The notes under the pieces were generated by a model. It searched no databases. It saw nothing but the letters and a program-made list of their open reading frames with translations, and was not told the origin of the DNA. Positions 13,044-22,354 of a stretch of 64,000 nt of DNA are shown in pieces; the first letter of the stretch is position 1, and each line of letters begins with the position of its first letter. The stretch spans positions 21,614 through 85,613 of the forward strand of contig CAZKFL010000003.1 of NCBI GenBank assembly GCA_964552055.1. The letters run 5' to 3'. This stretch comes from an uncultured bacterium. GTDB taxonomy: Bacteria; Chlamydiota; Chlamydiia; Chlamydiales; 2-12-FULL-49-11. The translations under genes were made by a program, and so were the position numbers.

Positions 13044-13112
13044 ATGATTGAAATTAGAAAATATTGTCCGGAAGATGTTCAGGCGCTTGCAAATATTTAT
13101 TCTCTTATTTAG
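13044..13112 (+). pseudogene. 22-codon remnant of a GNAT acetyltransferase 5' end (copy of the start of 21872..22354)
   Basis: It translates to MIEIRKYCPEDVQALANIYSLI*, compared with MIVREYRPEDVQALANIYYSTI at the start of the intact GNAT gene. Confidence 0.7.
13068..13100 (+). repeat. left copy of a 33-bp imperfect direct repeat bracketing the 13.1-21.9 kb island
   Basis: CCGGAAGATGTTCAGGCGCTTGCAAATATTTAT compared with CCTGAAGATGTTCAAGCGCTTGCAAATATTTAC at 21905-21937. 30 of 33 positions are identical by hand alignment. Confidence 0.8.
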
Positions 13113-13575
13113 ATCTAATTTTTAAATAGTCTTGCCAATCTTGTTCCCAGGAATCATAAAGTGCTTTCGCTTGTGTAATATGAAAATCAATAGAACCAGG
13201 ACTCATGTAATCGCGACAATCATCAGGCAAATAATCAATTGCCGGCTTTCGTTTTTGAAATAGTGCTAAAAGAAAATCTCGCTCTCGGTGTATTTGATTT
13301 CTTTCTTCCAAGGTCTTTAAAAGGGTCGATTCAAGGGTAGTTATACGACTTTCAAGGGTAGTCGCAGTTCTTGTAAGGACGGATATTTGAGTGTGTAGCC
13401 CAATGCTTAAAACGTAAATGCTTTCTTGAAGGGCTTTATTGTGTTTTTGTTCTTCTTCAATGAGTGTACTAACTTTGTCGATCAGTGCGTGCAATTTCGT
13501 GGTGGTGTCACCATCTGTGGATGCTCTTGCTCTCACAAAAGGGCTCATTGGTCTTGTTTCTACTTTTGTAGCCAT
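13105..13575 (-). CDS. coiled-coil protein, family A paralog 1 (conserved N-terminus MATxxETRPMSPFxRARAS)
   Basis: The N-terminus MATKVETRPMSPFVRARASTDGD is shared with the three neighbouring genes. It is followed by heptad-rich LESRITTLESTL. Confidence 0.7.
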   Translation of the reverse strand: MATKVETRPMSPFVRARASTDGDTTTKLHALIDKVSTLIEEEQKHNKALQESIYVLSIGLHTQISVLTRTATTLESRITTLESTLLKTLEERNQIHRERDFLLALFQKRKPAIDYLPDDCRDYMSPGSIDFHITQAKALYDSWEQDWQDYLKIRSK

Positions 13576-13584
13576 ATTTACCTC

Positions 13585-13866
13585 TTATTTAGGGGAGATG
13601 GGACGAAATGATATTTGTGCTTCAAGAAGAGTTACGCGTCTTTCTAGAGAAGAATAGGTCTTTTTGAGGCCCGATAGCTTAGTGGTTAATTCAGCATTTA
13701 AAATAGCGATGCGTTCTTGAAGCAATTTAATGTGCTCCTCTTGCACCAATATAAAAATATCAATTTTTTCAATAGTTACCTGAAGGTCATTAGCGAGGTC
13801 AAATCCTGCAGATGCTCTCGCTCTGGCAAAAGGGCTCATCGATCTTGTTTCTGGTCTTATAGTCAT
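13585..13866 (-). CDS. coiled-coil protein, family A paralog 2 (short)
   Basis: N-terminus MTIRPETRSMSPFARARASAGFD followed by LERRVTLLEAQ. Confidence 0.65.
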   Translation of the reverse strand: MTIRPETRSMSPFARARASAGFDLANDLQVTIEKIDIFILVQEEHIKLLQERIAILNAELTTKLSGLKKTYSSLERRVTLLEAQISFRPISPK

Positions 13867-13874
13867 AAGTATCC

Positions 13875-14303
13875 TTAGGAAGGGGTACCTGTAGTTCCTT
13901 CGTAATGGTGAGCACCAAAATGTGCTGATCTATACGGGTGTGTATGTAAGGACAATCTAACTTCCAATGAACTTAATCGTTCATTTTGGGCTGCGATGAT
14001 CCTTGCTTGATCATCAATTTTTTTCATGAATTCTGTTGTTAAGGTTCTGTTCTGTCCTTCAAGGGCAGTGACTCTGGCCTCAAGGGTAGTAACAGATCTT
14101 CGAACGCCTGAAAGATCGGTTTGTATTCTGGTTTCTAAACCGGTAATTAGTTCTCTAAGTGCATTGTTATGTGCCTGTTCTGTTCGAATTAATTCATCAA
14201 CTTTAGCAATGGTTGCACGAAGATCTATAGTAACGTCGGCTCCTGCAGATACTCTTGCTCTGGCAAAAGGACTCATAGGTCTTGTTTCTGTTCTTGTAGC
14301 CAC
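13875..14303 (-). CDS. coiled-coil protein, family A paralog 3
   Basis: GTG start. N-terminus MATRTETRPMSPFARARVSAGAD, then LEARVTALEGQN, and a His-rich C-terminus LHTHPYRSAHFGAHHYEG. Confidence 0.7.
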   Translation of the reverse strand: MATRTETRPMSPFARARVSAGADVTIDLRATIAKVDELIRTEQAHNNALRELITGLETRIQTDLSGVRRSVTTLEARVTALEGQNRTLTTEFMKKIDDQARIIAAQNERLSSLEVRLSLHTHPYRSAHFGAHHYEGTTGTPS

Positions 14304-14317
14304 AATTACCTCTTATA

Positions 14318-20066: not shown

Positions 20067-20082
20067 AAAAAGAGAGAAATGT

Positions 20083-20853
20083 ATGATTGATCCAACAGCA
20101 AGGCAGGTGAGTTACCCTTCGGAAGCGATGAATATACCGGTTTCTCATGCGGAAGTATTGAAGATTAAAAATGATGTTGAAAGTGCAGCAGCAGAAATCA
20201 GCCGCAATGAGATGACTAAAGAGATGTCTGTGAGTATCAAAAATCAGTATTTTATTGATATACAAGGCTGTAAATCCGAAATTATACAGGCAATTGATGC
20301 ATGGAAAATGGCAGGACGCAGTTTTGAATTTATTCAAACGAAAGTACAAGAGATGATAGCCGGTTTTTCACAGATTCGAGAGCGCATGCTTTTAAACAGT
20401 GCTAAAATCAAAGAATCTGAAAGAGGTGTAAGTGACAAAATGCAAGCTTGCTCCACAAGTTTGCAGCCTTTATCTCAAGCGGCCAGATGCTCAAAACTTG
20501 CGGAACAACTTAGGGATTGTCATTTTAAATCTTCCGAAATTAGGTCTATTGTGGATAGATGCAATCAAGCAGAGCAAGATGCGATCGTTCGGAAAAAAGA
20601 ATTAAAAGAGAGCTCCCGAAAATTTAAAGAAAAAACAAAACCCTATGTTGAGGCTGCCACTCTAATGGGTAGCGGTGCTGCAGGGGCTTATGGTGTTGAA
20701 AGGCTGGCTAAAGTAGCAAGCAAATCACCTAAAATTAGCTTAATTTTATTAGGGGTAGGAGTCGGAGCCTATATTGGAGCCGAAATTAGAAGGTGGTTAA
20801 ATGAAGAAGAGACGGAGCTAGACGAAGAAGCAAAAGTAGAGGGAAAGGAATGA
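20083..20853 (+). CDS. family C paralog 3 (N-domain only, C-terminal coiled coil plus transmembrane segment)
   Basis: N-terminus MIDPTARQVSYPSEAMNIPVS... is shared with 20870..21847. The SFEFIQTKVQEMIAGFSQIRERMLLNSAKIKESERGVSDKM core is shared with all four members. Hydrophobic segment ISLILLGVGVGAYIGAEI. Confidence 0.7.
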   Translation: MIDPTARQVSYPSEAMNIPVSHAEVLKIKNDVESAAAEISRNEMTKEMSVSIKNQYFIDIQGCKSEIIQAIDAWKMAGRSFEFIQTKVQEMIAGFSQIRERMLLNSAKIKESERGVSDKMQACSTSLQPLSQAARCSKLAEQLRDCHFKSSEIRSIVDRCNQAEQDAIVRKKELKESSRKFKEKTKPYVEAATLMGSGAAGAYGVERLAKVASKSPKISLILLGVGVGAYIGAEIRRWLNEEETELDEEAKVEGKE

Positions 20854-20869
20854 AAAAAAGAGGGAACAT

Positions 20870-21847
20870 ATGATAGATCCAACAGCAATGGAATTGAGTC
20901 GCGTTTACGAAGTAATGAATACGCCAGTTTCTTACTGGGAAGCTGGAGAGATTAAGGATAGTGTTGAAACCGCGGCAGCAGAAAAAATCACGGATGATAT
21001 GACAAAAGGGATGCCTAAGATAGTGAGAGATGCTTATCTTATGGAGATCCAAAATCTAAAGTCAGACATTCTTGGGGCAATTACTGAATGGCGAGATGCG
21101 GGATGCAGTTTTGGATTTATTCATGAGAAAGTACAAGAGCTGATAGCCGGTTTTTCAGAAATTCGCGAGCGAGCGCTTTTAAATAGCGCTAAAATCAAAG
21201 AGTCGGAGCGATGCGTAAGTGACAAAATGAAAGCTTGTTCGAAAAGTTTGCAAACGTTTACCATGGGCTCATGTAGAACCGTTCCCGAATACACGCCAAT
21301 GTCATGTAGAAAAGTGCTTCACATGTCATCGAAAGGGATGGAAGTACGGGATCGTTGTCCAGTAGAGTCCAAGTATTACCATTCATTTGAAGTGGGCGAG
21401 CTTTCAGATTTTCTTGCATGCGGTGAATTTGCAAGAGAGATGAGAGTTTCTAATTTTCCCTTTCTCAGCACATCATCAGTATCGCTTGTTTTAAAAGAGT
21501 CCGCCATTTGGAAAAAAGAAACAGATCCTACAGGTACTTGCAACTTCTTGGGATTTTCCAGGTGTGAGCTTAAGCTAAAAAACATCACTATTGCAGATGT
21601 AGAAGCGGTTGCAGTAGATGATAGAACCATATTGCCCAAAAGCGTGCACGAAGAGCTAGTCAGACGAGGCATTTCGATCGTTAGTCTACAAAAAGAACGA
21701 AAAACTGTTAGAGTAGAGAGCCCTGCTAGAGAAGTATGTGCACCAGCCGTTCCCGGAATTAGAGCCTGGACGGACCGTATTCGCGTGACCGGAGAAGGCG
21801 CTGATGGAAGACCTAGATATGAGCCTAAAAAAAATGGATTCTTTTAA
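20870..21847 (+). CDS. family C paralog 4 (N-domain plus divergent YYHS...FLSTSS C-domain)
   Basis: MIDPTAMELSRVYEVMNTPVS..., then KYYHSFEVGELSDFLACGEF...FPFLSTSS...ITIADVEAVAV, colinear with paralog 2. Confidence 0.7.
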   Translation: MIDPTAMELSRVYEVMNTPVSYWEAGEIKDSVETAAAEKITDDMTKGMPKIVRDAYLMEIQNLKSDILGAITEWRDAGCSFGFIHEKVQELIAGFSEIRERALLNSAKIKESERCVSDKMKACSKSLQTFTMGSCRTVPEYTPMSCRKVLHMSSKGMEVRDRCPVESKYYHSFEVGELSDFLACGEFAREMRVSNFPFLSTSSVSLVLKESAIWKKETDPTGTCNFLGFSRCELKLKNITIADVEAVAVDDRTILPKSVHEELVRRGISIVSLQKERKTVRVESPAREVCAPAVPGIRAWTDRIRVTGEGADGRPRYEPKKNGFF

Positions 21848-21871
21848 GAATTTTGTCACCTGGGATGAAGT

Positions 21872-22354
21872 ATGCAACAGATAATGATTGTAAGAGAATA
21901 TAGGCCTGAAGATGTTCAAGCGCTTGCAAATATTTACTATAGTACGATTCATCTAATCAATATTCAGCATTACTCACAAGAGCAAGTGGATGTGTGGGCT
22001 CCGAAGTCAAGTTTAGAAACGGAAGGATGGGAAAAGAAATTTATAAGAACAAAGCCTTTTGTTGCAGTTGTAAGGGATGAGGTTGTCGGTTTTGCTGAAT
22101 TTGAACCAAATGGACATATCGATTGCTTTTATGTGCATCACAATTGGATCGGAAAAGGCGTCGGTAAAGCTTTAATGAGATCAATCTTTGAAAGGGCAAG
22201 AGAACTTAAAATTGATACACTTTTTTCTGAAGTGAGCATCACTGCGAAGACATTTTTTGAAAGCCAGGGCTTTGTTGTGATAACTGAACAGACTATAGTT
22301 AGAAAGGGAATAAAGCTTACAAATTACAAAATGGAACGAAAGATTACTCTTTAG
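21872..22354 (+). CDS. GNAT family N-acetyltransferase (intact copy)
   Basis: VHHNWIGKGVGKALMRSIFERA (motif A) and FFESQGF. Its 5' end is duplicated at 13044-13112. Confidence 0.85.
   Translation: MQQIMIVREYRPEDVQALANIYYSTIHLINIQHYSQEQVDVWAPKSSLETEGWEKKFIRTKPFVAVVRDEVVGFAEFEPNGHIDCFYVHHNWIGKGVGKALMRSIFERARELKIDTLFSEVSITAKTFFESQGFVVITEQTIVRKGIKLTNYKMERKITL
21905..21937 (+). repeat. right copy of the 33-bp direct repeat bracketing the island
   Basis: See 13068..13100. Confidence 0.8.

Follow-up and report, generated by a model that had tools for sequence, protein, structure and literature searches.

The stretch of DNA analysed here (the window: 64,000 nucleotides of contig CAZKFL010000003.1, assembly GCA_964552055.1) comes from a freshwater Parachlamydiaceae-like chlamydia. 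It carries an intact GNAT acetyltransferase gene, GNATb (21872-22354, plus strand), and, 8.8 kb upstream and in direct orientation, a truncated copy of the 5′ end of such a gene, here called the stump (13044-13099, plus strand). The two copies are different alleles, and the DNA around the stump belongs to a 12.2 kb interval of variable gene content that separates a MazG-like gene from GNATb (9629-21871). On balance, the stump is probably the displaced 5′ end of an older short-start GNATb allele, with GNATb acting as a recombination anchor. The structure reflects ordinary genome turnover, a known kind of genome dynamics, rather than a mobile element. An earlier reading of the sequence alone (the sequence-only reading) had described, between the two copies, four tandem minus-strand coiled-coil genes (cc), a four-gene plus-strand operon (op) and four plus-strand paralogs (par). 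These contents are as described, and none of them matches a known family.

Relatives of GNATb and of the LD-carboxypeptidase encoded upstream of the stump are all environmental Chlamydiota, mostly labelled Parachlamydiaceae, with best identities among the nearest relatives of 84% for the acetyltransferase and 74% for the carboxypeptidase; homologues of GNATb number 651 across the Chlamydiota. Every junction discussed below is covered by independent contigs from four freshwater-metagenome runs (X1-X4) with zero differences, which rules out an assembly artefact; this support consists of contigs, which are unable to show rare deletion or excision junctions. Relatives fall into three deep lineages, namely the window lineage, lineage A (L052/53, L058 and L064) and lineage B (L063), between which MazG is about 80% identical at the nucleotide level.

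Two alleles of the GNATb 5′ end

The intact gene encodes a full-length acetyltransferase domain (PF13673, Acetyltransf_10, E 1e-20, together with PF13508, Acetyltransf_7, and PF00583, Acetyltransf_1), and its repeated segment spans 21884-21936. The open reading frame of the stump continues to a stop codon at 13110-13112, giving 22 codons (MIEIRKYCPEDVQALANIYSLI*, 13044-13112), and it retains a ribosome-binding site. The direct repeat had been recognised before from two 33-nt cores that are 30/33 identical; it is real and extends without gaps over 44 nt with 39/44 identities (13056-13099 versus 21893-21936). The next-best match of this 44-mer on either strand of the whole window reaches 25/44, which excludes chance. 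Allowing one 3-nt gap, homology runs from the ATG (13044-13099 versus 21884-21936) and ends abruptly at 13099/13100, that is to say at nucleotide 56 of the stump; the stop codon of cc1, the nearest coiled-coil gene, lies 5 nt away. The similarity thus does not extend through whole genes, the pattern that the sequence-only reading had associated with a simple gene duplication. A 17-nt core (GCGCTTGCAAATATTTA) is identical in the two copies, every mismatch falling 5′ of it. Their upstream arms are unlike each other: GNATb is preceded by the 3′ end of parN, the stump by a sequence that corresponds to the MazG-GNATb spacer of relatives.

Inspection of the two start regions separates the copies further. 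The stump begins with a derived short type, MIEIRKY, found otherwise only in the MazG-linked proteins P0004/5/8 and, as MISIRKY, in P0006. In contrast, the intact gene begins with a long type, MQQIMIVREY, which aligns with the common M-K-x-E-I-S-I-R-D-Y of hundreds of homologues. At the nucleotide level the stump is identical at 50/56 positions to L052 and L064 (21/21 over the first 21 nt), at 48/56 to L063, at 44/56 to the intact GNATb of the window and at 41/56 to L054; its peptide matches 18/19 residues of the P0004 N-terminus. With a short start and a MazG-linked spacer in the stump and a long start in the intact gene, the two are different alleles rather than a duplication made by an insertion. 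With 50/56 identities to lineage A and 48/56 to lineage B, the stump lies about as far from the one as from the other, which is what an allele native to the window lineage, and not a recent import, would show. The end of the stump (CTTGCAAATATTTAT) resembles the start region of cc0, a fifth coiled-coil paralog present in L062 (CTTGTAGTCATATAT). A few shared bases (ATAT/TAT), a possible microhomology at the illegitimate joint, lie at 13097-13103, though later trimming may have altered the joint as first formed.

The uninterrupted arrangement is seen in relatives. In L052 and L053 a triad of GNATa (minus strand), the MazG-like gene (plus) and GNATb (plus) is contiguous, with a gap of 19 nt between MazG and GNATb, and L064 has the same MazG-GNATb junction next to decayed GNATa and MazG genes. 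The window retains GNATa (8764-9183, minus strand; Pfam Acetyltransf_1/7/10), which is 78-81% identical in amino acids to its same-position orthologue in L053 and L058, and the MazG/PRA-PH-like pyrophosphohydrolase gene (9223-9645, plus strand; Pfam PRA-PH/MazG). The sequence-only reading had placed the island at 13044-21937 and expected an empty site in which the LD-carboxypeptidase gene is followed directly by the acetyltransferase. These limits were misplaced: relatives show MazG, 19 nt and then GNATb, the variable interval is 9629-21871, and the carboxypeptidase gene is part of the variable DNA and not of its flank.

Probable traces of the native junction persist on both sides of the left part of the interval. 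In local alignment to L052, homology of the window MazG to its relatives ends at 9628, and its last five codons are new (STVST*) and common to the sister lineage L062, whereas L052, L053 and L058 end in ...NLKMMDQV*. Directly before the stump lies a segment (12998-13043, plus strand) made up of a probable relic of the MazG 3′ tail (12998-13024) and the native MazG-GNATb spacer with its ribosome-binding site (13025-13043). Taken together, the stump and the 24 nt upstream of it match 70/80 positions of the L052 junction, from the MazG stop codon through the spacer and ribosome-binding site to the GNATb start. The spacer contributes 14/19 identities, ungapped and in the register set by the stump, and the putative MazG tail 12/23, a score reached by a fraction of 0.008 of window positions. 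This tail restarts (~12998) at the very point of the gene at which the window MazG loses homology (9628).

A second breakpoint in GNATb is found in lineage A. The GNATb genes of L058 and L064 are 92% identical in nucleotides over their bodies and only about 70% over the first ~110 nt (L058 10001-10110 versus L064 10001-10095). In L064 and L053 the short start directly follows MazG; in L058, 1.2 kb of different DNA, comprising a gene for 359 amino acids and an LD-carboxypeptidase relic, separate an intact MazG from a long-type GNATb start. This breakpoint is independent of the one in the window, and the two together mark the GNATb 5′ end as a recurrent recombination junction. The exchange was clean in L058, whereas the window kept a stump. 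In lineage B, L063 (492-1442) has the order reversed, with a short-start GNATb (GTG start) followed by a MazG gene whose tail is truncated differently, which is further evidence of repeated rearrangement of this gene pair.

The island itself is shared with sister lineages. L062 and L054-57, from GROS21 metagenomes, together span the order MazG′-h155-h115-h131-cc0-cc1-cc2-cc-opG-J-parK-N-GNATb at ~86-91% nucleotide identity to the window. They share its two outer junctions (MazG′|h155 and parN|GNATb), so the block is older than the split between them and the window. In place of window positions 11936-13100, which hold the carboxypeptidase gene and the stump, the sisters carry cc0 in 480 bp with conserved flanks, and the same adjacency of h131 and cc0 is seen in contigs of L067/L068 and ERZ1426836 (the last compared by gene calls, not DNA). 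That is to say, all of these relatives carry cc, op and par genes beside GNATb with neither remnant nor carboxypeptidase, a finding that the sequence-only reading had named as counting against an insertion marked by the remnant. Its proposal of insertion or recombination at the GNAT 5′ end with target duplication is accordingly sustained in part: the breakpoint, the uninterrupted site in relatives and the lineage-specific content bear it out, and the duplication does not stand, the two copies being different alleles.

Routes to the present arrangement

From these comparisons we infer in what order the events took place, how the ends were joined, and that the stump was lost rather than gained. 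The gap between MazG and GNATb would be a recombination hot spot in which the conserved GNATb coding sequence serves as the right-hand homologous anchor and the left join is non-homologous. In an ancestor of the window and its sisters, the block of cc, op and par genes would have arrived with a long-type GNATb 5′ end, and its left end would have been joined illegitimately to the resident short-type gene at nucleotide 56. Instead of being replaced, the old 5′ end would thus have been pushed upstream as a stump, together with its spacer and the MazG tail, and a second block, from h155 to the carboxypeptidase gene, would sit in the MazG tail. Tandem duplication, gene loss, deletion and nonsense mutation would have followed within the interval. 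In the window, later deletions may have trimmed the stump and removed cc0, for which the likeness of the stump end to the cc0 start region offers a possible microhomology route; in the sister clade, other deletions may have removed the carboxypeptidase gene and the stump.

Several observations weigh against displacement as just described. The homology of the MazG tail is weak (p ~0.008), and a neutral stump that keeps an open frame and a ribosome-binding site after ~10% divergence is somewhat unexpected. Close relatives of the window with an intact short-type GNATb were not found, and a mosaic breakpoint within the window's GNATb is not demonstrable: sliding identity against short-type genes is flat and uninformative as to a crossover. 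All three sampled island-bearing relatives lack the stump, and L062 and L067 are 93-95% identical to each other versus ~90.6% to the window; since these two are mutually closer than either is to the window, loss and gain of the stump are equally parsimonious. A further point concerns the carboxypeptidase. L058 carries, directly upstream of GNATb, a pseudogene relic of an LD-carboxypeptidase, 31 codons long and interrupted by a stop (9913-10005, minus strand; FNMNFGRTDS*MIIP), and in L076 the carboxypeptidase gene and GNATb are 1.1 kb apart. These suggest that the carboxypeptidase gene may be an old neighbour of GNATb rather than a part of the insertion, one that would have adjoined GNATb more than once, or for long.

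There is some chance, if a modest one, that the stump was gained secondarily. On this account the ancestral island resembled that of L062, and in the window lineage 1.17 kb carrying the carboxypeptidase gene and an upstream flank with a GNATb 5′ end later replaced cc0, unrelated to the arrival of the cc, op and par genes. The presence of cc0 beside h131 in all sampled island-bearing relatives fits, as do the neatness of the alternative segments, which behave as cassettes between conserved flanks, the occurrence of carboxypeptidase and GNATb as neighbours elsewhere, and the frame of the stump, still open and with a ribosome-binding site. The donor, however, would have to combine the minus-strand carboxypeptidase gene with a MazG tail, spacer and short GNATb, and no such arrangement was found among the 105 carboxypeptidase loci of our synteny survey (50 genome loci, L002-L051, and 55 metagenome loci), none of which matches the window arrangement or comes from a relative of the window lineage (best identity 74%); an approximate search of the 50 genome loci for the stump core returned background only (≤23/35). 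This account also leaves the break of MazG at 9628 and the tail at ~12998 as a coincidence, and the stump, at ≤89% identity to any sampled short-type gene, is too distant for a recent import. An origin from two old GNATb paralogs, one short and MazG-linked and one long and possibly next to the carboxypeptidase gene, would dispense with an insertion altogether, the stump being a short copy that decayed after differential loss. Short and long 5′ ends do both occur in lineage A (L052 and L064 versus L058) and in the window lineage, and in a bootstrapped neighbour-joining tree of the GNATb body, which places the window clade only weakly (0.2-0.42), the short types form no clade, the single supported grouping being that of the long P0007 with the short P0004/5/8 (0.895). 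We nevertheless regard this origin as unlikely: no sampled genome or contig has two intact copies, the 92% identical bodies of L058 and L064 with different 5′ ends indicate a recent exchange of the 5′ end, and the stump ends exactly at the cc spacer.

It is quite improbable that the interval is a site-specific integrative island that brought a replacement GNAT 5′ end, with the stump as attL and 21884-21936 as attR. The geometry fits, with imperfect direct repeats at both ends, a truncated upstream copy, an intact downstream gene, a 17-nt identical core and differing upstream arms, all of which recall integrative islands and prophages. In contrast to such elements, no integrase, recombinase, excisionase, transposase, transfer or replication gene was found in 9.6-21.9 kb or the flanks to ~30 kb, and Pfam searches of the flanks at 0.1-9.6 kb and 22-39 kb returned no integrase or recombinase. 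The boundaries show no inverted repeats, tRNA and Rfam scans of the region returned nothing, and a scan of 2.9 million viral contigs for par (as parL), opG and GNATb found none of them. The interval also fails to move as a unit: the sisters hold the cargo and the right junction with no left repeat, and content varies through small internal indels. Composition carries no foreign signature either. The sequence-only reading had seen the op genes as richer in GCN, CGN and GAG codons than the flanks, and they are indeed enriched in GC and in Ala, Arg and Glu (Arg 8-11% versus 2-4% in the flanks), with GC at the first codon position of 0.57-0.59 in three of the genes and 0.48 in opH. GC at the third position is 0.28-0.31 in the op genes and 0.25-0.36 inside the island versus 0.24-0.41 outside, and synonymous choices lie within the flank range, so the rise at position 1 reflects amino-acid content rather than a composition foreign to the host. 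A transposon or insertion sequence with target-site duplication was considered and rejected, there being no transposase and no inverted repeats; where a short identical duplication would be expected, the repeat copies are 79-89% identical over 44-56 nt and unlike in their upstream arms. Barely credible, finally, are a tandem duplication of the GNAT gene with later decay and a chance similarity. Tandem duplication does dominate the interval and its neighbourhood (cc x4, par x4, beta-lactamase x2), yet nothing GNAT-like follows nucleotide 56, and the flank of the stump corresponds to what separates MazG from GNATb in relatives rather than to the parN-GNATb spacer; a match of 39/44 against a best background of 25/44 speaks against chance.

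Displacement of a GNATb 5′ end has documented counterparts. Homology-facilitated illegitimate recombination (HFIR) and displacement have been described for comparable stubs at Rhs and type VI secretion system (T6SS) effector loci (PMC5361080). The Rhs, contact-dependent inhibition (CDI) and T6SS loci share with the window one homologous anchor with an illegitimate join at the other end, an older version surviving as a truncated stub with a short piece of the conserved sequence (PMC5361080), imperfect direct repeats around the new module, and mosaic anchor genes in related strains, as here in L058 versus L064. They differ in that a toxin-gene core serves as anchor there, whereas the window uses the 5′ end of a small housekeeping-type acetyltransferase gene, and in that the variable DNA of the window lies upstream rather than downstream. 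Effector-immunity logic in the window is hypothetical, as is HFIR or natural transformation in these chlamydiae.

Variable intervals between conserved genes, filled with tandemly expanded, lineage-restricted genes encoding coiled coils or single hydrophobic segments, are also familiar from the chlamydial plasticity zone and from lineage-specific expansions of effector genes in environmental chlamydiae. The location of the interval is unrelated to the plasticity zone of the Chlamydiaceae, and the marker genes of that zone (MACPF, PLD, cytotoxin, trp) are not present here. Obligate intracellular bacteria are usually thought to be short of access to foreign DNA. The stump can be read as a dated scar of gene-content turnover in such a bacterium, pointing to change through repeated recombination anchored in a conserved gene rather than through a mobile element, with a second lineage showing an independent breakpoint. 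None of these results overturns current ideas.

Genes carried in the interval

The cc, op and par genes are orphan families confined to a single species-level clade, that of the window organism. Searches of the ten largest open reading frames in 13.1-21.8 kb against Pfam, NCBIfam, PHROGs and PADLOC returned coiled-coil noise only, and among clusters of 5.8 billion proteins par matched 7 and cc 13, all of them coming from the window organism or a few close relatives. The four tandem cc paralogs (13105-14728, minus strand) are cc1 (13105-13575), cc2 (13585-13866), cc3 (13875-14303) and cc4 (14318-14728); they share a conserved N-terminus, MATRxETRPMSPFARARAS, with an invariant ETRxMSPFxRAR motif in the alignment, and their copy number differs among relatives. 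The op genes (14839-18117, plus strand), opG (14839-15852), opH (15837-16553), opI (16546-17064) and opJ (17065-18117), overlap or abut at 15837/15852, 16546/16553 and 17064/17065, and their proteins are 80-92% identical in amino acids to those of L062. OpJ has a Pro-rich tract and, by hydropathy, one C-terminal hydrophobic segment (residues 294-322).

All four par genes lie on the plus strand. parK (18151-19098) has a single in-frame stop at 18871-18873 and is intact in L054; a contig from run X1 spans 18240-18923 with zero differences, the stop included, and parK is thus a very recent pseudogene or encodes a truncated product. parL (19113-20066) encodes a helical N-terminal domain followed by a C-terminal domain predicted to resemble an ADP-ribosyltransferase (ART). 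parM (20083-20853) has the same N-terminal domain with a Gly-rich hydrophobic C-terminus in place of the ART-like one, the hydropathy profile placing the hydrophobic stretch at residues 217-236 behind a Gly/Ala-rich stretch. parN (20870-21847) combines the N-terminal domain with a divergent ART-like domain and is 80-86% identical in amino acids to its counterparts in L054-57, where it also lies directly upstream of GNATb. Matches of the par N-terminal domain to low-complexity helical repeats (P0129 and others) were judged to be at motif level only. A motif, Y[LV]PD.CR.YM, recurs at the C-terminus of cc1 (residues 115-124, 13460-13489) and at the start of the parK C-terminal domain (residues 138-147, 18562-18591), with a blastp E of 0.026 between the two, and may reflect domain shuffling between the families.

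The C-terminal domain of parL (residues 138-317, 19524-20063, plus strand; invariant YYH at 19617-19625) gave an AlphaFold2 model with pLDDT 83 and pTM 0.81. Foldseek matched this model to yeast Tpt1 (7yw4, E 7e-5) and Thermus DarT (7omw, E 2e-3) at probability 1.0. DarT accounts for four entries among the top matches, which also list DarT of Mycobacterium tuberculosis and E. coli, CC0527, Scabin and Agrobacterium 6b. Nearly all top PDB matches are ART folds, and Tpt1 is the top match of the full-length parL model too; TM-scores are only 0.43-0.61. The C-terminal domains of parK, parL and parN share an invariant YYH, a G, the T of ST, a W and a C, and their alignment holds no invariant Glu, Asp or Gln. 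Pfam searches of six par members at E≤10 returned nothing, including PF01885 (PTS_2-RNA) and the DarT family, and a profile search of par against PDB sequences gave no ART match. The distant relatives P0128 and P0137 share the domain.

The par C-terminal domain is thus modelled as an ART-like fold, for which membership of the Tpt1 or DarT family is unsupported by sequence and activity is a prediction at most. Tpt1/KptA and DarT are its best structural matches, and the invariant par strands YYH[PA]T and [LV]ST presumably echo the YHGT and HLS motifs. The par proteins differ from both in lacking the N-terminal lobe of Tpt1, a DarG-like macrodomain partner and an invariant acidic catalytic residue, and in the fusion of the domain to a family-specific helical N-terminal domain.

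Differences in copy number, the nonsense mutation and the domain swaps together indicate rapid birth-and-death evolution, a pattern typical of host-interaction genes in environmental chlamydiae. The modelled ART fold, along with coiled coils and hydrophobic tails that occur singly, makes it most likely that the cargo consists of lineage-specific secreted effector or toxin-like proteins. The single hydrophobic stretches seen by hydropathy in opJ, parM and h155 may or may not correspond to the bilobed hydrophobic domain of ~40-60 residues that marks chlamydial inclusion-membrane (Inc) proteins. The cargo is of more practical interest than the scar, with an orphan ART-like fold that sequence methods miss and genes plausibly involved in host interaction or toxicity. 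It is a doubtful, speculative step further to see the GNATb 5′ end as a dedicated cassette-exchange site for effector modules, with par proteins as a new family of Tpt1/DarT-like enzymes, acting on nucleic acid or protein either inside the amoebal host or as toxins, cc and op proteins as their partners, and the neighbouring phage-type exonuclease/RecT pair at 32.1-34.6 kb as a source of short-homology recombination activity.

L052, L053 and L064 have no counterpart of the left variable block (9629-12997) between their MazG and GNATb genes. This block holds h155 (9663-10130, minus strand), with its hydrophobic stretch at residues 70-105; h258 (10135-10911, minus strand), a 258-aa orphan; h115 (11039-11386, minus strand); h131 (11492-11887, plus strand); and the LD-carboxypeptidase gene of peptidase family S66 (11946-12986, minus strand), with N- and C-terminal domains PF02016 (E 8e-32) and PF17676 (E 9e-19). 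L062 has h155, h115 and h131 and lacks window positions 9993-11011, with h258, as well as 11936-13100. The first of these segments, 1 kb in length, represents another recent indel in the interval, and h155 is split in L062. A sigma-70-like match (TTGACC-18-AATTAT, 12985-13014, minus strand) lies in the upstream flank of the stump and faces the carboxypeptidase gene. Scans for promoters and terminators yielded counts no higher than expected from shuffled sequence, and sigma-70-like matches were not above chance. The promoter of the carboxypeptidase gene must lie in the region of the stump, which might explain why the stump has been preserved.

Neighbouring regions of the window

A large phage-like region occupies 30883-63761. 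It includes an endonuclease gene (30883), a PD-(D/E)XK exonuclease gene (32096-32689) and a gene for a RecT-like annealing protein (33730-34602), followed by genes for a CI-like protein (38020), a DnaG/DnaB primase-helicase (39642-41984) and ParA (42504). Structural genes encode baseplate J (51119), a baseplate hub (54164), a tail protein (55992), a DUF3383 protein that we take to be tail-sheath-like (58143) and a major capsid protein (62318). For a chlamydia, a tailed prophage or phage-plasmid is unusual, and the exonuclease/RecT pair could promote recombination at short homologies.

Toward the left end of the window, a gene at 3094-3846 (minus strand) encodes a mitochondrial carrier repeat (PF00153, E 2e-18), a eukaryote-type transporter in a bacterial genome. 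Just downstream of GNATb, two adjacent genes of the beta-lactamase family (PF00144) occupy 23129-27550. The second, of 962 aa, contains the module twice, and the N-terminal regions of both genes are related, the result of tandem and internal duplication.

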